Virus record (IMG/VR): IMGVR_UViG_2737471864_000010 | Span: 1-41,069 of that record | Strand: one strand, 5' to 3' | Length of the DNA stretch: 41,069 nucleotides | Source of the DNA: a virus | Taxonomy: Duplodnaviria; Heunggongvirae; Uroviricota; Caudoviricetes | Program-made: the position numbers and the translations under genes | Part shown: one piece after another, positions 2,476 to 36,012 of the stretch | Position numbering within the stretch: the first letter of the stretch is position 1 | How the letters are laid out: each line of letters starts with the position of its first letter | Notes under the pieces: generated by a model | Database searches by the model: none | Told to the model about the DNA's origin: nothing | What the model saw: only the letters and a program-made list of their open reading frames with translations

Positions 2476-2523
2476 GTTATGGTGTATTTATTTGTAATAC
2501 AAGAACCAAAATAATAAATATTA

Positions 2524-4359
2524 TCAATCAACCATTGATGGGAATGATGTTGCTATAGTAAGAACAGAACCTGAAGGAAATGATTGAATTGTAACATTTC
2601 CGTTAGCCGAAATATTGATCAGTGCTATAGCATTGTTTGTTCCACAAGGTATATAAGATATATCTTTTTCTGGCCTGAACCCTGAAGGAAGATTCATTAT
2701 AACCGTTCCAACAGAAGTTGCCCCTCCAGTTAAAACGCAATTTATATTTATAATACCATCCAGAGATTTTTGGTATGTCCCTTTCCTTGATTCTCCTATA
2801 ACCCATCCATTTTGTAACAGGCCAGATATTTCATATTGCTTACCACGCCACTGTGACCATGTGTTCTCACTTATCCTTCCTATGCGAGTAAAACACACTC
2901 TGCTACTTTCAGATATATATCCATATAATTTTTGCAACACTACTCCATCAACAAATCTATCGACCTGAATAACACCATCAAGAGGCCAAGAAGAATCATC
3001 AGGATTTGTTCTCCACCATGAAGTCCCCATATGAAACGTATTTGGTGGATATGAACTACCAACAAATTGCAAAGATGAACCATTGTTAGAAAATAAATTA
3101 GAACTTCCATTTACTACTTTGCATGGGCCATATATGTAATCAAGTAACTCATGGTGAATTTGGGCGCTAAAAACATAATTTGGATGAATTCCGCGACCAT
3201 CCACATATGGATTATCAAGCCAGTTACCTGCTGCGCCTCTGGAATCCTGCCACATACCGTAAGTGTCAAAAAACATGCACTTATATTGTTTAGCTTTAGC
3301 TCTAAGCACGGCTGTTAACTGTTCATACCATTTTTCATCACGTCCGTTTGGTGTGTCTGATGTTGAGTTTGGGGACATGATAATAATTGATTGCTGGGAA
3401 ACTGATTTGTTATTTCGTAACTTGGAAAGACCTCTATCTAATGCGTCTTTTACTTGATCCAATGTATAACCATAATATGGATCGTTAATTCCCCATCGTA
3501 AAACAATCAAATCAGCAGCAGAAAAAACAGACCATTCCCGATCAATATACCAATTACCCCATTCGTATAGAGTTTTACCTGAATGACCTAACGATGTATT
3601 TTTTACATCAATAATTCCATACCTTTTTGCATAAAAATCAGCGATAGTGGCTGGAGGCCATGACTCAGAGTTTACACCAACTATAGTGGAGTCTCCAGAC
3701 CATAAAATATATGTTTTTTTATCTGAAGTTACTCCGTCACCGTTAATAAGTTTATTTGTAACATAATTTAAATACTCTTGACCTATAACAAATCTATTCC
3801 TCGGATTTGTGTATGTTGATAACTGGACACCATCCCTATTAAAAACTCTTCCCCTTCTAGCATCGATTTCCACACCATAATCATTGTTAATAGAATCAAC
3901 AACCTCATCTTCATTAATTGTTAACACCGTCTGACCTGAGACGGATGAATTAATAGCGTCTTGTATTTTTGTTTCGATAGCGCCAGATCTTTTAATGTCT
4001 TTTTCAGCACGATAATATGCCTGATCTGGGTCATATTTTAACACATTCGGAAAATAGAACTGCTGTGCACCATATGCATCATAAACAGCCATAGAATGGC
4101 CTTGCACAGTTACGAACTTGGCAATCTGTCCGTTATATACCGGGTAACCAGCAGCGTTAATGATGATTGGTTGCGATACAGGAACGTGAGAGCCATCTTC
4201 GTTCTCCACATAAACCTGCACTTGATTCTGTGGGAGCGTAGGATCGGAATCTATCTTACCAATGAATATCTTGCCATTGCTTGCGGCCTGGAATTTTCTG
4301 GCTAACGTAAATAGTTGACTTGGCATTGAAATTATAACATTTGGCACAATATTTGACAT
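2524..4359 (-). CDS. Tailspike protein: P22-type N-terminal head-binding domain fused to an SGNH/GDSL-hydrolase-like (esterase) domain
   Basis: N-terminal ~110 aa (…NGKIFIGKIDSDPTLPQNQVQVYVENEDGSHV…VTVQGHSMAVYDAYG…NVLKYDPDQ) closely resembles the P22 gp9 head-binding domain; central region carries SGNH blocks WSGDSTIVG, RWGINDP and DGRGIHP. The 3' two-thirds is visibly AT-rich. Confidence 0.75.
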   Translation of the reverse strand: MSNIVPNVIISMPSQLFTLARKFQAASNGKIFIGKIDSDPTLPQNQVQVYVENEDGSHVPVSQPIIINAAGYPVYNGQIAKFVTVQGHSMAVYDAYGAQQFYFPNVLKYDPDQAYYRAEKDIKRSGAIETKIQDAINSSVSGQTVLTINEDEVVDSINNDYGVEIDARRGRVFNRDGVQLSTYTNPRNRFVIGQEYLNYVTNKLINGDGVTSDKKTYILWSGDSTIVGVNSESWPPATIADFYAKRYGIIDVKNTSLGHSGKTLYEWGNWYIDREWSVFSAADLIVLRWGINDPYYGYTLDQVKDALDRGLSKLRNNKSVSQQSIIIMSPNSTSDTPNGRDEKWYEQLTAVLRAKAKQYKCMFFDTYGMWQDSRGAAGNWLDNPYVDGRGIHPNYVFSAQIHHELLDYIYGPCKVVNGSSNLFSNNGSSLQFVGSSYPPNTFHMGTSWWRTNPDDSSWPLDGVIQVDRFVDGVVLQKLYGYISESSRVCFTRIGRISENTWSQWRGKQYEISGLLQNGWVIGESRKGTYQKSLDGIININCVLTGGATSVGTVIMNLPSGFRPEKDISYIPCGTNNAIALINISANGNVTIQSFPSGSVLTIATSFPSMVD

Positions 4360-5986: not shown

Positions 5987-6049
5987 GTCGTTAATTCCTA
6001 TGCGTGGTTTTACGATACCGAAGCCCTGACTGTTACCGCAGTTGGGGCT

Positions 6050-6253
6050 TCAACTTTCTGCTCTATCAGTTATATCTTTCCCTTCATATACTTCACCTAT
6101 ATTGCTAATGCTGGCAGAACATCCAAGATGCTTGTATCTTATGATGTCCAACACGCAGTCACTACACAGCATCCGACCTGTTTCTTTAGAGTAAATGTAT
6201 GTTTGATCAGCGTCTGATTCGCTAATGCCGCAGAAACAACATTCTTTACTCAT
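6050..6253 (-). CDS. Small Cys-rich (zinc-ribbon-like) hypothetical protein between arc and ant
   Basis: 67 aa with CCFC…CSDC cysteine pairs; start overlaps the arc stop. Confidence 0.4.
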   Translation of the reverse strand: MSKECCFCGISESDADQTYIYSKETGRMLCSDCVLDIIRYKHLGCSASISNIGEVYEGKDITDRAES

Positions 6254-6390
6254 ACCGTTATCCCCTCTCTCTTCAGGCTGTCCATCACCCGTTTAATTAC
6301 TTCTGCACTAAATGAGCGACACTCTTCCTTTGCTTTCTCTTCAAGGATTTTTTCTAACTTCTCTGGCATACGCAGTGTTTTTACCTTCAT
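6250..6390 (-). CDS. arc: Arc-like ribbon-helix-helix repressor (below the ORF-track length cutoff)
   Basis: Hand-called 46-aa ORF MKVKTLRMPEKLEKILEEKAKEECRSFSAEVIKRVMDSLKREGITV with a GGAGG ribosome-binding site; resembles P22 Arc. Confidence 0.5.
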   Translation of the reverse strand: MKVKTLRMPEKLEKILEEKAKEECRSFSAEVIKRVMDSLKREGITV

Positions 6391-6489
6391 TGCATCCTCC
6401 GTTGTATGTGGTACGCATACATAGTATTTAGGTACGCATTGATAGTCAATAGATACCTACATATCCTGTGGTAAAAAATTATTCAGGAT
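6391..6489. promoter_or_regulatory. Divergent immI control region (Pant/Pmnt-type) with operator-like palindromes
   Basis: Intergenic region between divergent arc and mnt-like genes; contains repeated GGTACGCAT and the palindrome ATTGATAGTCAAT. Confidence 0.4.
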
Positions 6490-6495
6490 GTGCCG

Positions 6496-6753
6496 ATGTC
6501 TGATCGTAAGTACAAAAACCCTCAAGTGAATCTGAGGCTTCCTGTAGAGATAAAGGAACGTCTTATTGAACTGGCTGAGGCTAATTCTCGTTCATTAAAT
6601 GCTGAGATGGTCGCGGCACTTGAAGCATGGACCGAAAAAAATAAACACATTCAAGCACTAGACCTTGCAACTATAGCATCACGATTGATAGATCTTGAAC
6701 ATGATGTTGAGAAGTTGAAATGCATGTATAGCAACAATAAAGACGAAAGTTAG
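6496..6753 (+). CDS. Ribbon-helix-helix (Arc/Mnt family) DNA-binding protein, second Mnt-like paralog
   Basis: Track ORF starts at a GTG at 6490; the ATG at 6496 with an AGGA site is preferred. The N-terminus NLRLPVEIKERLIELAEANSRSLNAEMVAAL fits the RHH pattern. Confidence 0.55.
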   Translation: MSDRKYKNPQVNLRLPVEIKERLIELAEANSRSLNAEMVAALEAWTEKNKHIQALDLATIASRLIDLEHDVEKLKCMYSNNKDES

Positions 6754-6776
6754 AGATACTAACTTGGAGTGATGGC

Positions 6777-7028
6777 ATGGCTAGAGACGATCCGCACTTT
6801 AACTTCCGTATGCCTTTGGAAGTAAGAGAAAAATTGAAATTAAGAGCAGAGGCTAACGGAAGGTCAATGAACTCAGAGTTATTACAAATCGTTCAGGATG
6901 CGCTATCAAAACCATCACCGATTGCAGGCTATCGAGACGATGCAGAACGCATCGCTGATGAGCAGTCCGAACTTGTTAGGAAGATGGTGTTTGATACGCT
7001 GAAGGATTTGTACAAAAAACCCACCTGA
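6777..7028 (+). CDS. mnt: Mnt repressor (ribbon-helix-helix)
   Basis: 83 aa MARDDPHFNFRMPLEVREKLKLRAEANGRSMNSELLQIVQDAL…, very close to P22 Mnt as I recall it. Confidence 0.8.
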   Translation: MARDDPHFNFRMPLEVREKLKLRAEANGRSMNSELLQIVQDALSKPSPIAGYRDDAERIADEQSELVRKMVFDTLKDLYKKPT

Positions 7029-7040
7029 CGGTGGGTTTTA
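7013..7040. terminator. Bidirectional intrinsic terminator between mnt and the convergent two-gene cassette
   Basis: AAAAAA-CCCACC-TGAC-GGTGGG-TTTT; overlaps the mnt stop codon. Confidence 0.6.
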
Positions 7041-7460
7041 TTAGTGCTTGTATAGGTTGAACTCTCTATCAAGCCATATAACAAAAAATGTCGATCCAAG
7101 ACGATAACCAACCATGGCTTTCAAATCATCAAATCTAAAAGCCAAGAAATGATCTACGTCTTCCGTTATATGACTGGGGATACCTGCTTTAATTGCACCC
7201 CTTGCAATCTTCTCAAATCCAAGCTTATGCCTACCTTGCTGCTTAATATCTGCCCATGTTAGTTGACTTAATCTGTATAATTTATCAGCTAAGCCAGCTT
7301 TCTCATCTTTTTGGCATTTCGTTATGCAGTGAGAGCTTTGGATGTAACAGAATGAAAATTTCGGTTTCTTTTGATCTGAATTCCCCCCTGACTGCGGCCC
7401 TAACTTTAACTTACCTGTAGATTCAGCAGGGGGGATAATCCTTTTAGATTTTCTTGCCAT
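7041..7460 (-). CDS. Hypothetical protein, candidate toxin partner of the upstream Panacea-domain protein
   Basis: 139 aa from MARKSKRIIPP…; starts 4 nt after the upstream stop. C-terminus …GYRLGSTFFVIWLDREFNLYKH loosely recalls RelE/YoeB-type toxin C-termini. No confident family assignment. Confidence 0.4.
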   Translation of the reverse strand: MARKSKRIIPPAESTGKLKLGPQSGGNSDQKKPKFSFCYIQSSHCITKCQKDEKAGLADKLYRLSQLTWADIKQQGRHKLGFEKIARGAIKAGIPSHITEDVDHFLAFRFDDLKAMVGYRLGSTFFVIWLDREFNLYKH

Positions 7461-7464
7461 CTCG

Positions 7465-7914
7465 TTAGTTAATCCGAGTTGCAAAGTACTCTGCCATCTC
7501 CTTAGAACTAATTTCAGAACCACCAACACCCTCAATATAGTTTGATCTCCATGGTGACTCTTCGTGTGTCATGTTCCTCAGTTTCCAGGCAGAAAATTGC
7601 CCAAAAACATCCCAGACTTCTTCTAATAGCTCTAACTGTTCTTCGCTGAATTTTTCAGCATCAAAAGACTCTGGAGAAGGGATAGCACCATTACCATATT
7701 GTTTATAACGGTGATAAAGCTCAGGGACAACAGGGCCATGCATCCAAGCTTCCATCTTATTCTGAAAAAGAGGCTCGCCAAGCAACGCCAATGAAAAACC
7801 CTGAGCATAGTAAACAAGCTTTTGTAATTTTAAATTAGAGATTGCGTCACCGCTATCCTCGTCACACCGCGACAGGAAGTAGTCGGCGACATCAAAACAA
7901 GTAAGCATGAACAC
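7465..7914 (-). CDS. DUF4065 / Panacea-domain protein (COG3600, GepA-like), candidate antitoxin
   Basis: 149 aa with the characteristic NLKLQKLVYYAQGFSLALLGEPLF…EAWMHGPVVPELY block; GGAGGTG ribosome-binding site. Recognition from memory. Confidence 0.6.
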   Translation of the reverse strand: MFMLTCFDVADYFLSRCDEDSGDAISNLKLQKLVYYAQGFSLALLGEPLFQNKMEAWMHGPVVPELYHRYKQYGNGAIPSPESFDAEKFSEEQLELLEEVWDVFGQFSAWKLRNMTHEESPWRSNYIEGVGGSEISSKEMAEYFATRIN

Positions 7915-8282
7915 ACCTCCATCTTGATAGCCACAGCTAAGTATCCAACTATGTCAAATGTCATTTAATACTATAACAAAGCTATCAGCAATCCTTCGGA
8001 GGCTAACTTACAACCACTTTAGCGACATGTTTAAACCATTACGTTTCACATTTACTGCATTTTCGCCGAAGTTACCTATAAGGTAATGTCACATTTCCTG
8101 CAAGTTTCATGCAATGTTGAAAAGTGAGCTATTCACTTTTCTATGACACCAAACACCAAAAATAGCACTTTTTGCTAAATCATTCGTCCAAGTTGTGGAT
8201 GGTTTGTCGTTGACACGTTTTCACACACCACTCCACCAATAAAGTATCATCTGGTATCCTGAGCAAAACTAAGGAGGTTGGT

Positions 8283-8777
8283 GTGTCTGATTCTATGAGT
8301 TACGCTGTGCTAGTTGCCGCAACTCTATTTCTGGGGATAGGGTTGCAGATTGCGTGGTTCTTTTTTTCTAGTTTTATTAAACGTAAAAGAATTGAATCAA
8401 GGATATCTGAGATTTCTATTGCTATAGGGAAAAATGCTGAAAATCCAGAGAATGAGGCCTGCGCACTGAATTACCTTAAAGAAAAGTTTTCCCCTGAAAA
8501 ATTTGAAAACAGAATTACTGATGCTCTTGGATTGGTAATATCAGTAATTCATATGCCACTAAGTTTGCTGATAACAGTGTGGTACTTCGCCATGATCGCC
8601 GGAAGAATATTTGGTTTCATGAATATAGAGCCTGTAGTTCTTTGGGTTCCAATGATACTGCAATTGTTGTTAAGCGTTGCTATCTTTATTTTTTCTGTTT
8701 TTATAAAAATTGTCTTCGGAAGATACCCCGGAGAAGCGAAGGGATTTAATAAAGAATTCATAAAAACTATAAAATAA
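8283..8777 (+). CDS. Polytopic inner-membrane protein at the sieA (superinfection exclusion) position
   Basis: 164 aa with about four hydrophobic segments; GTG start preceded by AAGGAGG; lies between the gp16-like gene and the immI region where P22 carries sieA. Homology to SieA not verified. Confidence 0.4.
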
Positions 8778-8799
8778 ATGCCGTCCTTGGCTTACAGTG

Positions 8800-10641
8800 C
8801 TACTGCCGGGTAGCTTCGTTAACTAAGAGCGGGCGCACGGCAGTAGCCGCCTGATTTAGCGCTCTTTCATAAGCTGGCGTTCCAGCTTTAGTGTTTGCCA
8901 GACGTAAGAGCGCATTCCTTGCTGCTTTGGATTCATACAAGCGCATCATTGCACCGAAACCAGCCTCAAGCCCCATTGATACGCCAAGAGTCGTAGTTGC
9001 GCCAATCGTCCTTATCCTGTTGGCTTGCGATTGCCCCGTCTGAGTTACTACATTTGCGGTGTCTGATCTTGCTGTTTGCTGTAGAACTTCATGAAGAGCA
9101 TCAAGTTCTTTCATGTGCTTTCCAGAAAAAATAGCGTTGTAAATTTCACCACCTGACTGAGATTTCAGCTTATTAACTTCCGTGATGAACTTGGCTGGAG
9201 AGTCACCGGCCTTTTCCGCTATTTTGCTGACGTAAGCTGCACGCATAGCATCTTTCCCTTTATCATCCAATGCGCTCCAGATTCGTTTCACGTCAGATGG
9301 TTTTCTGCTTAATACAACAGTATTTATAAGTTCAGGACTGGCTTCACTGCTTGCCTTGTTGAGCTTGTTAGCAATGTTTTTATTAAGCACCTTATTATAA
9401 ACGTTTGCATAATCGGAATTTGCTTTAAGGTATTTTGCTGCGTCTGAAGCACCGAGGTTTTTAGCAACTGCGTTACGAAGGTCTTTTGACATTGCATTCT
9501 CTACCATATTGGTAGCTGCTTTTGCCTGGTTGGGGAAGACCATGGCATCTCCCTGAACATTAGATCTAAATGCTGTTCTGTGCTGGCGCAAGAGATCAAA
9601 CGTAACATCCAAATCAGTTGCAGGGTTTGCTAATTCTTCACGTAGGTTACGCAAGGATGTAAGCAGGCTTTGATTGGCAGAAGTCCCAAGCCGTTCCTGT
9701 CTTGCGATCGCTGTATTCAGAGCATTCATGGTATTTGTGGTATCAACTGCGGCATTACCCATTTTATTGGTGACGTCATTGATAACAGCGCCAGCGGCAT
9801 CCTTCCGTCCCCTTAACGTGGTGGTCAGAGATTTCACCACATCATCAGGGTTGTACTCACCAAAACGGTCAAAATAATTGCTTACCAGCTTACTACGCGT
9901 TGCATATTGCTCCGCTCTCTTTGAGCCTGTCCCGAGCAAAGCCCCCTCGGCATCCTGAGTAAGGCCGCGAGTGAAAGCATTTTTCGGCGGGATAACATCA
10001 GATGTCATTGGTGTCACGCCCATCGATTCTGATGTGGCAATTTTCTTCGCCACTTCTGGCGCAATATCACCTTTTATAGCCGTTATTCCACGCCCTATTC
10101 CCTTTGCTGCTGCGGAAAGAACACCCTGAGCGGCAAGGTTAACTCCGGCATTTTTAGCTGCATTTTGTGCGAAATCACCTTTCTGATTTGCGGCCTCTGC
10201 CAGTGATCCAATAGCCATGCTTCCTGCCGTTCCAACTCCTGGAACTAAATACCCGCCAATTGTTTCTCCAGCTTGAGCGTAGGGGTCTGTCGGTCTGTCT
10301 ACTGGACGATAAACATCATCCAAAACCTTGGGGCCACCAAGCCCCTGACTGATTGCATTAATCAGACTTGCGCCACCCTGCAATACGTCAAATGGTATGT
10401 TTACCAGACCACGACCAGCCTGTTCTGCAATTTGCCCTGCACTTTGACCACCAGTGAGCCAATCGCCAGCTTGTTGCATCAATGATGGTTCTTCCCGTGT
10501 TGGTGCATTATTGGCCTGATTAACTGTTTGTTGCTGAACAGCCTGACCAGCAAAATACTCATCAATGGCGGTGCCAATATCTTCGGTGCTCGTACCATCA
10601 GGGAAGGTAAATGTCTTACCGTTTGCAGTTACTTTCATCAT
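8800..10641 (-). CDS. Ejection (internal virion) protein, P22 gp16-like
   Basis: 613 aa, Ala/Gly-rich; size and position after gp7 and gp20 match P22 gene 16. Confidence 0.65.
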
Positions 10642-12089
10642 TCCACCGTAAATTGAATGCCTGATTTTGACGTGTAGCTACCTCCTGCTGATTGCTGAGT
10701 AGGCGGCTGTTGCATTGATGATTTCTTCCCTCCATTACCGACATTAACGTTATATTGCTGGTTGTAATTGTCGGTATATTGCTGAATGTCGCGCATTGAT
10801 TGTTGCAGCGCTTCAGGACTTGAGAAATCAGGCTTTGGCATACCCTGAAAATACCTATTGGCCTCTGCTTCGGTGTTGATGCCAGATGCCCCCATATCTC
10901 GGGCTGCTGCAATCCCCTGATTTTGCATTTTGCCCATGATTCGCTGTGCAGCGTTGTATAGCCTCCTCTGATCACCACCAGATGCACGGCTACGAATATC
11001 TGCACCAAGAGCAAAAGAACCTGAAGAACCTGTAATACCTGTCATGAAGCCAAGATCGTCAATTGATGCGCCAGAAATTGCATCAATATCTTTCTTCATT
11101 TCGTAATTCTGTGCATTAGCTGCCGATGTAGCCGGAGCAGCAATAGAACTGGCGGGGACGCGAATCATATTGCCCTCGTTGTCTATTCCTTCGTAGAACG
11201 CATTAGCACCAGCGCCGTGAAGCTTCCTACCAACCGTTACTGTTCTGCCATCTGCCAGTTGCACAACATTCTCCCCGCCAGCATCAGGACGGCCTCGAAC
11301 ACGAAGATATGTCTTTTGTTGCTCCGGAGACAGGCTGTTGAAATATTGATATTCTTTAACAGATGCAGGAACAGCACCTCCAGCAGTGCGCAGGGAGTTT
11401 TCACGGCTAACAGCAATGCTTTGCGCCTGTAAACCTTCCCCAGCTTTATTGCTGCGAATCGTCTCTGCCAACTTGCCACGCTCAATATCCCGCCCCTCCA
11501 TTCGATCTTTTATATCGAAGTACTTCTCATGACCGAGAGAAAATAGTGCCAGATTACCTGCGAAGTGCTGGAAGCCCTGCGGGTCATTAACCTGCATTTC
11601 AGCAATAGTTTCTGGAGGTATACCTAAACGACGCATCTCCTTTTCGTTATCCATCATGAACCTGCCAAATGCACCCGAGCCAAGCGACGAAGCTACCTGA
11701 GCCTTGAGCGCCAGATTGCCAAAATCATCCCGCTGGGCGTCATCGACATAGCCCATTCCTTTACGGACTTCCTCAAACTCTTCAGGGAATGCTGTAATAA
11801 GATTACGCATCTGCTCCCTGTCGCCGGACGCATAAGCATCTGCATAACCTTTCTGGAATGCAGCTTTACGCTCCTGCTGTTGCTGCTGCTTATAAATATC
11901 AGCAACTCCAGCCAGACCACGTAACGCGGTCAGACCAACGTTATTTACACCTGAGCGAGCCAGTTCATTGTTTTCGCGGATCAGGCCAAGCGTTGCATTA
12001 ATGTCTTTTGCCTTTGGCGCATTCTCGTTTTGCGCACCAATGCCAGCCAGAAAACCACCAGAATTAATACCCTGTTGCCACGTAGCCAT
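10638..12089 (-). CDS. Ejection protein, P22 gp20-like
   Basis: 483 aa; gene order and size. Confidence 0.65.
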
Positions 12090-12099
12090 TGATTACCCC

Positions 12100-12792
12100 T
12101 TAAAACAACGAGCCAAGCAGACCAAGACCAGCACCGATACCAGCACCCCACGGAGTTGATAGCTCGAGAGCACTGGCTATGCCACCACCCAAAAGCGCAC
12201 CGGATGCAGCACCACTAACCCCCTGCTGCAATGCTGACGGTCGGTTGGCGTTTGCCGCAGCCAGCGCCGCGCTTTGCTGTGAAATCTGACTCATGTTGTT
12301 GGCATATGTTTGCCCGGCGTTTGCCTGACCTTGCAGAGCACCAAGCCCAACGTTTGCCAGATTCTGGTAGTTGTTCATCTGACCAGACAGCCACTGCTGA
12401 CCAAGCGTTGGTGCGATTGTTGCTAACTGATTACCGGTTGCAGTGGAACCCAATCCACCTGTTGCTTCCGCTGCCGCCAGACTCTGATAGCGAGCCTGAC
12501 CAGCAAGATCTTTGTACTGCTGAGAGTTGTAATACTGGTTAAGTGCCTGACCTTGCCCTTCCAGAGACGATAAGTTCTCGAGGCTGCCGACATACTTATC
12601 AGCCAGAGGAGTAAACGGCTTCAGGTTGTTCATGATGGTGTTGAACTGCTGATTTTGCAGGTCTGCTGCATACTTCTGAGCTTCTGCTGCATACTTTGCG
12701 CTTTTATCAGAGCTGCCACCTTTCCCGCCTTTTTCAGGGCAATAAGGTTCCTCGCCGCGCAGTTTTCTGCCCAGCTTAAATGCATATAACAT
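12100..12792 (-). CDS. Ejection protein, P22 gp7-like
   Basis: 230 aa, Gln/Ala/Gly-rich with a hydrophobic C-terminus; gene order and size. Confidence 0.6.
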   Translation of the reverse strand: MLYAFKLGRKLRGEEPYCPEKGGKGGSSDKSAKYAAEAQKYAADLQNQQFNTIMNNLKPFTPLADKYVGSLENLSSLEGQGQALNQYYNSQQYKDLAGQARYQSLAAAEATGGLGSTATGNQLATIAPTLGQQWLSGQMNNYQNLANVGLGALQGQANAGQTYANNMSQISQQSAALAAANANRPSALQQGVSGAASGALLGGGIASALELSTPWGAGIGAGLGLLGSLF

Positions 12793-26412: not shown

Positions 26413-26543
26413 TGCATTTTACAGACCTCTCAGCCTGCGATGGTTGGAGTTCCAGACGATACGTCGAAGTGACCAACTAGGCGGAATCGGTAGTAAGCGC
26501 CGCCTCTTTTTATCTCACTACCACAACGAGCGAATTAACCCAT

Positions 26544-27035
26544 CTATCCCATACTGGAGAATTCACCATGATATTTTATCCTGGCATTTTCCATTGCCTT
26601 TCTCGCCTCCTCGATATCGTCAAAACACCCTACATGAATCCTTTTACCATTGACCCTAATTCTTCCAACCCACTTGTTTGCAGCAGAATTAAAAGTCACC
26701 CCCTTCACACCAGATGAATTGTTTTTCCTCATCTTGCTGTTCCATGAGTTTTGAGTGTTAGTAACAACACGAAGATTGGCTATCCGGTTATCAGATCTAT
26801 CACCATTAATATGGTCAATCACATCGGTTGGCCAATCATTGTAAACCATCAGCCATGCAATTCTATGGACATATAGCCGCATTCCATAAAGTTTTACCTG
26901 CAGATATCCATTTGTTTTATAGCCAACAACAGCGCCATAGATAAATCTAGATGACCGAGGTGGATTCTTCCATGTAAGAATTCCAGTATCTGGATTGTAA
27001 TTAAAAAGTCTCAATGCATCTTCACGTTTTAACAT
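26544..27035 (-). CDS. HNH homing endonuclease with AP2-like domain (paralog 2 of 3), located inside the pR'-tR' leader
   Basis: 163 aa; NYNPDTG, HRIAW, DHINGDRSDNRIANLR, GVKGV…KYHGEF. Confidence 0.75.
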   Translation of the reverse strand: MLKREDALRLFNYNPDTGILTWKNPPRSSRFIYGAVVGYKTNGYLQVKLYGMRLYVHRIAWLMVYNDWPTDVIDHINGDRSDNRIANLRVVTNTQNSWNSKMRKNNSSGVKGVTFNSAANKWVGRIRVNGKRIHVGCFDDIEEARKAMENARIKYHGEFSSMG

Positions 27036-28475: not shown

Positions 28476-29000
28476 TTATCCTCTCCCATGATTATGGTGA
28501 TACCCCAATCGTGATTCCGCCAATTTTCTGGCATTAACGGCTAGAGATATGTCATCGTATAATCCAAGAAATATCTTTTTATTATCACTGTTTATATATG
28601 CGCCCCACTTTTTATTCTTCTTATAGTAGGCAACACCCATTACTCCAGAGCGATTATTAATAGGCTTTTTTCTGTTCCTTGAGTTCTGTTTATCATCTAC
28701 AACGCGCAAATTGCATATTCTGTTATCGCTTTTAATTCCATTTATGTGGTCAATTTCCCCATCAGGTTCGCTTCCATAAAATGATATCCATGCGATTCTA
28801 TGAGCTCGACAAACTTTTTTATTTACAGATATACGAACGTATCCTTTTTCATCTATAGAACCAGCAATCTTACCGGCATATGTTGAATTCCAGCACTCTC
28901 TTACACTTTCTCTTCTTTTGTATATAAACAAACCTGTTTCGCTATTATATTCATACAATTCATTGATTTCTTTTTGTGTTGGATATCTTTTACCGTTCAT
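28476..29000 (-). CDS. HNH homing endonuclease with AP2-like domain (paralog 3 of 3)
   Basis: 174 aa; EYNSETG, HRIAW, DHINGIKSDNRICNLR, GVMGV; strongly AT-rich; start and stop abut the neighbouring genes. Confidence 0.75.
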   Translation of the reverse strand: MNGKRYPTQKEINELYEYNSETGLFIYKRRESVRECWNSTYAGKIAGSIDEKGYVRISVNKKVCRAHRIAWISFYGSEPDGEIDHINGIKSDNRICNLRVVDDKQNSRNRKKPINNRSGVMGVAYYKKNKKWGAYINSDNKKIFLGLYDDISLAVNARKLAESRLGYHHNHGRG

Positions 29001-35342: not shown

Positions 35343-35644
35343 ACCCATAAAATGTACTATTGGTACTTTACATTAATGAACTTTAAGTACATCATAAGCC
35401 CATAGACGAACGGCGCGTCTTTAAACCATGCGTCGGGAGCGCGGCGGGTTCAGGATGAACGGCAATGCTGCTCATTAGCGAGAAGGCTTTTTTGCTTTTA
35501 GTCACAAAAAGCAAAGCAGCTTTTTGATATAGAAGTCGTTCGAAAAAATAGAAGTATTTATTGCAAAGATTCAAACCCATTAGGAAACAAAATACATGCA
35601 GTCCAAAAAATAAAATTGTACAGTAAACTACCGTACGGTGCTTA

Positions 35645-35989
35645 TTGGGTATGCTTATGGTGAAAAAGACTATTTATGTTAATCCTGACAGCGGACAAAA
35701 CAGAAAAGTATCTGATAGAGGTCTTACATCTCGAGACAGGAGGAGAATAGCGAGATGGGAAAAAAGGATAGCATATGCATTAAAAAACGGTGTAACACCT
35801 GGATTTAATGCTATAGATGACGGTCCTGAATATAAGATTAATGAAGAACCAATGGACAAAGTTGACAAAGCATTAGCAACACCATTTCCTCGCGATGTCG
35901 AAAAAATTGAAGATGAAAAATATGAGGATGTAATGCACAGAGTTGTTAATCACGCTCACCAACGAAATCCAAATAAAAAATGGTCATAG
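35645..35989 (+). CDS. Candidate N-like transcription antiterminator (arginine-rich motif protein); true start uncertain
   Basis: First gene of the early-left operon; arginine-rich segment TSRDRRRIARWEKRIAYA; followed immediately by a strong intrinsic terminator and more same-strand genes. No sequence match to known N proteins recognised. Confidence 0.35.
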   Translation: MGMLMVKKTIYVNPDSGQNRKVSDRGLTSRDRRRIARWEKRIAYALKNGVTPGFNAIDDGPEYKINEEPMDKVDKALATPFPRDVEKIEDEKYEDVMHRVVNHAHQRNPNKKWS

Positions 35990-36012
35990 CCCACTTCGGT
36001 GGGTTTTTTTGT
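35990..36012 (+). terminator. Intrinsic terminator (tL1-like) immediately after the N-like gene
   Basis: CCCAC-TTCG-GTGGG followed by TTTTTTTG. Confidence 0.8.

Follow-up and report, generated by a model that had tools for sequence, protein, structure and literature searches.

The question raised by this locus is whether a short gene that lies against the late operon of an E. coli prophage encodes a superinfection-exclusion protein and, if so, of which kind. The DNA under study, hereafter the window, is one stretch of 41,069 nt, in which a sequence-only reading had marked a polytopic membrane protein gene at the place where phage P22 carries sieA, leaving its similarity to SieA unconfirmed. 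The coordinates proposed for the gene were exact, and the ORF list gives the same plus-strand frame with a GTG start and 164 codons (Table 1). The gene is very probably the orthologue of P22 sieA (type A) in a CUS-3-like, P22-like E. coli prophage, and its product would block injection by P22-like podoviruses. With the SieA annotated for P22 (DAA00996.1 in BK000583; Hofer et al., 1995; Leavitt et al., 2024, PMC10883804), which is also 164 aa long, BLASTP gave an ungapped alignment with 152 identical and 160 positive positions of 164 (93% identity, E=3e-114). All 164 positions matched PHROG 7745, "superinfection exclusion SieA-like" (E=7e-109), and the resemblance to SieA that had been suspected is thereby supplied. 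In a tblastn search, 41 phage records (38 Salmonella and 3 Enterobacteria) matched at about 92% identity, and the matching gene is annotated there as sieA. At the DNA level, the homology to P22 spans 8252-8900, from 31 nt 5' of the GTG into the 3' end of gene 16, with 93.4% identity. Within the coding sequence, 21 of the 495 positions differ from P22, 9 of them synonymous and 12 non-synonymous. The substitutions relative to P22 SieA are L26F, N30S, L37I, V44I, K53E, Y60C, V61A, R73K, I85V, I91M, I132V and N153K, and 11 of the 12 are positive in BLASTP, the exception being Y60C. Because the gene is conserved with P22 at 95.8% (nucleotides) and 92.7% (amino acids) with a dN/dS of 0.36, the reading of 8283-8777 as a chance ORF was dismissed.

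The search for similarity to SieB or Imm-type proteins gave the SieA-like family as the only PHROG match at E<=0.01 and nothing relevant in Pfam, NCBIfam and PADLOC, where the scans of the protein returned sub-threshold noise (Kri1, DUF6161) or no match. The negative results of these three libraries are uninformative on identity because they contain no SieA model. It is extremely improbable that a different small membrane protein, such as a holin, an Imm/Sp-like protein or an abortive-infection pore, merely occupies the sieA position. Small polytopic membrane proteins are indeed common in phages and Pfam assigns the ORF no family, but the identity extends over the full length of a genetically and biochemically characterised SieA, the gene is located outside the lysis cassette, and no Abi-type model was found for the ORF with PADLOC. 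The gene is therefore best read as sieA; it is of a known, experimentally characterised kind of exclusion protein, in a host range reported before.

Table 1. Features at and around sieA in the window, with coordinates, strand and the basis of each assignment.
Feature	Position	Strand	Details and basis
Panacea cassette	7041..7914	-	Panacea-domain gene 7465-7914 and downstream 139-aa ORF 7041-7460
Putative sieA promoter region	8210..8260	+	Weak; by eye, alignment to PsieA of BK000583
Translation-initiation junction AACTAAGGAGGTTGGTGTG	8267..8285	+	Shine-Dalgarno AAGGAGG 8271-8277, 5-nt spacer, GTG
sieA CDS (type A SieA)	8283..8777	+	GTG start, TAA stop, 164 aa; ORF list, homology, dN/dS
Transmembrane segment 1	8298..8375	+	~aa 6-31; hydropathy, model helix 2-51, P22 TMHMM
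Transmembrane segment 2	8523..8603	+	~aa 81-107; hydropathy, model, P22 TMHMM
Transmembrane segment 3	8631..8717	+	~aa 117-145; hydropathy, model, P22 TMHMM
C-terminal motif FxRYPxEAxxFNK	8715..8753	+	aa 145-157, predicted cytoplasmic; read from translation
Terminator-like hairpin, weak candidate	8871..8888	+	~95 nt past sieA stop, in the convergent gene 16 3' end
Minus-strand ejection-protein genes convergent with sieA	8800..10641, 10638..12089, 12100..12792	-	ORF list
Gene 16 homologue (ejection/DNA transfer protein, 613 aa)	8800..10641	-	76% identity to P22 gp16; PHROG 770 "DNA transfer protein"
Gene 20 homologue (ejection protein, 483 aa)	10638..12089	-	57% identity to the C-terminal 423 aa of P22 gp20

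The genomic surroundings of the gene are also those of P22 sieA. The window represents a P22-like (Lederbergvirus-type) E. coli prophage, and its nearest phages are phiv205-1 and CUS-3, to which 60% of the first 25 kb is about 95% identical. A tRNA-Arg(CCT) gene (1009-1083) is located at the left prophage junction. The homology to CUS-3 begins at position 1054, which is the CUS-3 attL core; thus, the window opens with ~1 kb of host DNA, and the tRNA-Arg gene is the site of the prophage. The order of genes (gene 20, gene 16, sieA, variable cargo, mnt-like genes, arc, ant and tailspike) is the P22 immI arrangement, and the position proposed for the gene, which is that of P22 sieA between gene 16 and mnt/arc/ant/tailspike, was borne out. 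In E. coli, sieA genes of type A and type B were reported from P22-like prophages, in the interval from the gene 16 to the gene 9 homologue (Leavitt et al., 2024). The window gene occupies this interval as well, with the tailspike gene as the gene 9 homologue, and is convergent with gene 16. Its orientation on the plus strand, against the minus-strand homologues of genes 16, 20 and 7, had been read correctly, as had its AT-rich composition. The GC content of sieA, 35.6% (GC3 32.7%), is lower than that of the window (46.3%) and of its neighbours, genes 16 and 20 (47-49%), and sieA was the most AT-rich gene of the neighbourhood in this comparison.

Among 5,426 complete E. coli genomes, 35 contained a sieA gene of at least 95% identity, and these copies were 98-100% identical, several of them 100%. 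Most E. coli copies are recorded in RefSeq as "hypothetical protein" although they are clear SieA orthologues, and a few as "superinfection exclusion protein A", for example WP_106832615.1. Correct annotation is the main value of the assignment. The gene for WP_106832615.1, from a prophage of E. coli FDAARGOS_1251, shows 99.8% DNA identity over its whole length and likewise adjoins ejection-protein genes in a P22-like prophage. That prophage differs from the window in its upstream layout, which is P22-like (mnt, an orf59a-like gene and one minus-strand ORF) and without the Panacea cassette. Carriage of SieA predicts resistance of the lysogen to CUS-3-like and other P22-like podoviruses, which bears on phage typing and therapy of such E. 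coli.

Membrane segments were predicted as had been expected for the protein, but their number is three and not "about four". Kyte-Doolittle hydropathy (19-residue window) gave three peaks above 1.6, a single-sequence AlphaFold model gave three long hydrophobic helices (2-51, 71-109 and 117-147), and TMHMM predicts three transmembrane helices in the 93%-identical P22 SieA (Leavitt et al., 2024). The model, which is of low confidence (pLDDT 67, pTM 0.43) and served for helix boundaries only, also contains short amphipathic helices in the charged loop and the tail. The region of aa 81-145 is a nearly unbroken hydrophobic block and is therefore easily over-split by eye. After the first transmembrane segment, the KRKR at aa 33-36 marks the cytoplasmic side. 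The FxRYPxEAxxFNK pattern is the sole motif reported as conserved among the three SieA sequence types and was placed in the cytoplasm (Leavitt et al., 2024); it is intact in the window protein. The KRKR and the published placement of the motif point to a topology with the N-terminus out and the C-terminus in. There would be almost no periplasmic mass, since hydropathy and the model leave only aa 1-5 and ~108-116 in the predicted periplasmic parts, and this near-absence would fit a protein that acts inside the membrane or on its cytoplasmic side.

The three predicted transmembrane helices, the missing N-terminal extension and a length equal to that of P22 SieA assign the protein to type A. The window protein and P22 SieA share the Shine-Dalgarno sequence with GTG, the position and orientation by gene 16, the three transmembrane segments and the C-terminal motif. 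They differ in the 12 substitutions and in the host, which is Salmonella for P22 and E. coli for the window allele. SieA of type B (prophage HS1 of E. coli HS) and type C (Providencia/Proteus/Morganella) occupies the same slot, with a similar transmembrane prediction and the same motif. Both types are described as ~25% identical to type A, with an extra N-terminal transmembrane segment of 30-40 aa, and the exclusion spectrum of type B was indistinguishable from that of type A (Leavitt et al., 2024).

Identity, position, ribosome-binding site, hydrophobic architecture and motif are observed directly in the window, and with 93% identity the window allele would be expected to act as P22 SieA does. 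In a lysogen, a promoter of its own would give weak transcription of sieA, opposite to the silent late operon, and translation would start at GTG 8283 behind a strong Shine-Dalgarno sequence. The 19-kDa product would then enter the inner membrane via its three transmembrane helices, with the N-terminus outside, and aa 32-80 (the charged loop) and the FxRYPxEAxxFNK of the C-terminus would face the cytoplasm. From there, SieA would stop superinfecting P22-like podoviruses from delivering their DNA across the inner membrane, by hindering the assembly or the working of the trans-envelope conduit built by the ejection proteins gp20 and gp16, while phages of other types would not be affected.

This proposal follows what was reported for P22. 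When present once in the chromosome with 85 bp of its upstream flank, sieA sufficed to decrease P22 plating at least 10^7-fold and lysogenisation 10^5-fold and to abolish K+ efflux; since K+ efflux, plating and lysogenisation were all blocked, the block is at DNA injection (Leavitt et al., 2024). FLAG-tagged P22 SieA was detected in the inner-membrane fraction only. Escape from P22 SieA was obtained with gp16 G532W and P546S plus gp20 T338I, T341I, A348T or G350D, positions which belong to the C-terminal parts of the two proteins, while gp16 P546S alone gave no escape (Leavitt et al., 2024). An injection block with escape via gp16/gp20, which concerned P22-like phages only, was seen for both P22 and HS1 SieA. 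Furthermore, P22 SieA is active in E. coli, where CUS-3 was excluded to <=10^-8 and HK620 only to 0.33. In the model of the same authors, SieA interferes with the gp20/gp16 conduit at the inner membrane, and the masking of a host factor (YajC) was raised as an alternative (Leavitt et al., 2024).

We infer a direct contact of SieA with gp16 and gp20. In the alternative, SieA would make no contact with the ejection proteins and would instead mask a host inner-membrane factor (e.g., YajC) needed by the tip of the injection conduit. Such masking would explain why SieA types that are 24% identical exclude phages with very divergent gp16 and gp20 equally well, and it agrees with a predicted topology in which SieA is almost without a periplasmic part. 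However, exclusion is partly overcome at high multiplicity of infection, which was attributed to titration of SieA by the ejection proteins (Leavitt et al., 2024), and we regard the masking of a host factor as unlikely.

In P22, gp16 and gp20 are the genetic targets of SieA. Of the six escape positions, five are occupied by the SieA-sensitive residue in the ejection proteins of the resident prophage. In resident gp16, the G532 of P22 is kept (G536), and P546 is replaced by T550, which is the one exception. The four escape positions of P22 gp20 (T338, T341, A348 and G350) are all wild-type in resident gp20 (T350, T353, A360 and G362). Because P546S alone gave no escape from P22 SieA, the resident phage type, like P22, is probably subject to exclusion by the SieA it encodes. 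The block around the escape residues of resident gp16 (aa 537-580) is locally divergent from P22. The last ~40 residues of gp16 are, like sieA, much closer to P22, suggesting joint transfer of sieA and the gene 16 3' end.

HK97 gp15, Tuc2009 Sie2009 and TP-J34 Ltp are likewise phage or prophage membrane proteins that stop DNA entry after adsorption, and T4 Imm is another phage membrane protein with this effect. All of these are unrelated to SieA in sequence and act on long-tailed phages (via the tape measure protein) or on T-even phages, unlike SieA, whose target would be the gp7/gp20/gp16 conduit of P22-like podoviruses.

Expression of the gene was considered separately. A consensus scan upstream of sieA gave no sigma-70 promoter, so expression is inferred, and the promoter region listed in Table 1, read by eye, is putative. 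The PsieA annotated for P22 (BK000583) is only patchily conserved in the window: the TTGACA at 8210-8215 aligns with its -35 element, but it is displaced by a 12-nt insertion. Two candidates may be read by eye. TTCACA(8220)-N19-TATCAT(8245-8250) would reproduce the geometry of the P22 annotation, and the putative extended -10 element TGgTATCCT (8252-8260) is common to P22. Both would be consistent with the weak transcription reported for P22 sieA (Leavitt et al., 2024). A further reading of the locus is that the P22-type promoter was lost when the Panacea cassette was inserted upstream, leaving sieA intact but silent or decaying and the lysogen without protection. The upstream DNA is indeed unlike that of P22 beyond position -31, where P22 has the orf59a region and the window has the Panacea cassette, and the displaced -35 element and the negative consensus scan point in the same direction. 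Nevertheless, we consider this very unlikely, as sieA is full length with a conserved motif and a dN/dS of 0.36, and many E. coli prophages keep the same upstream sequence (99-100%), which drives hkcB as well. Moreover, the two by-eye candidates are plausible weak promoters, and P22 sieA is itself weakly transcribed.

Two terminator-like sites were observed by consensus scan in 7850-8950 against 1.0 expected, and a weak candidate hairpin is given in Table 1. The stop and last codons of gene 16 are overlapped by an inverted repeat with perfect 10-nt arms, GCTACTGCCG / CGGCAGTAGC, and a loop of 29 nt (8799-8847). In the P22 version, 2 of the 20 arm positions are changed and the stem is imperfect. 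This repeat (8799-8808/8838-8847) was rejected as a terminator because it overlaps the gene 16 stop codon and is without a T run.

The sole mildly new lead at the locus is the start-codon junction that is common to sieA and hkcB. The excellent ribosome-binding site attributed to the gene was confirmed, with AAGGAGG placed 5 nt 5' of the GTG, and the same stretch is present in P22. The entire 19-nt junction AACTAAGGAGGTTGGTGTG occurs once in the window, with 0 expected by chance, and is identical in P22 and one E. coli sieA prophage. When five loci were aligned, the block AACTAAGG(A/G)GGTTGGTGTG, comprising the Shine-Dalgarno sequence and the GTG, was invariant before sieA and before the unrelated hkcB, while the flanks differed; this block also occurs once in the window. 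The junction precedes hkcB in CUS-3 and in E. coli XJ23PTE1 (hkcB loci L002, 6268-6613, and L004 of CUS-3, 8603-8926). The XJ23PTE1 sequence is 100% identical to the window over 6000-8285, through the GTG, and then continues into an unrelated 109-aa ORF. This ORF is hkcB of HK620 (98% identical), and it has 50%-identical homologues in CUS-3, epsilon34 and SEN22. The hkcB product (109 aa) combines one N-terminal transmembrane segment with a coiled coil, and the gene occurs in HK620, CUS-3, epsilon34 and many E. coli prophages.

The start of P22 sieA was described as uncertain (Leavitt et al., 2024). The invariant block that is common to sieA and hkcB ends at the GTG and therefore supports GTG 8283 as the true start of sieA. 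An in-frame ATG at 8295 was rejected as a less probable start, given its distance of 17 nt from the Shine-Dalgarno sequence and the end of the hkcB-shared block at the GTG. The arrangement suggests that the translation-initiation region is a recombination junction for swapping membrane proteins expressed by the prophage. hkcB was rejected by sequence as a fourth SieA type, with E=0.048 over 7 residues in the comparison with SieA. We tentatively hypothesize, while regarding it as rather doubtful, that the 19-nt junction is a fixed slot at which unrelated membrane-anchored genes were recombined exactly at the start codon, and that hkcB might be an exclusion or defence gene replacing SieA. In a smaller variant of the slot hypothesis, the E. 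coli SieA allele and the divergent C-terminal block of resident gp16, with T at the P546 site, might reflect the co-evolution of excluder and target. The shared junction offers a cheap route to asking whether hkcB is a second exclusion function.

Together with the adjacent Panacea cassette, sieA had been proposed to form a lysogen-protective cargo island. The PanA gene is real and neighbours sieA, but the two do not belong to one unit. sieA is present without Panacea in P22 and in E. coli FDAARGOS_1251, Panacea is present without sieA in E. coli XJ23PTE1, and both occur together in the window and in a few E. coli prophages. Because they assort independently among prophages, sieA and Panacea are accessory ("moron") genes in one variable region and not a functional unit. 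The cassette in the window stands where P22 has orf59a and a non-coding stretch. Its Panacea (SocA-like) gene was assigned to Pfam PF13274 (E=8e-25), and the downstream 139-aa ORF gave a weak PADLOC match to NsnC (E=4e-6) and no Pfam family. The cassette genes match PHROG 1281 and PHROG 8366, the latter being the 139-aa ORF, and both are families of unknown function. The two genes are probably an antitoxin/toxin pair of the PanA type, with the 139-aa ORF as the putative toxin.

On the other flank of the cassette, three ribbon-helix-helix genes were observed: an arc-like gene at 6250-6390 on the minus strand, an Arc-family gene at 6490-6753 on the plus strand, and mnt at 6777-7028 on the plus strand, with Arc and Repressor_Mnt domains. 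CUS-3 has the same ribbon-helix-helix arrangement with two "mnt" genes, and P22 has one. The composition profile of the window also contains more patches of low GC content (35-40%), at 2501-4000, 26501-27000, 28501-29000 and 35501-36000, which may correspond to other moron or variable genes, for example around the tailspike.
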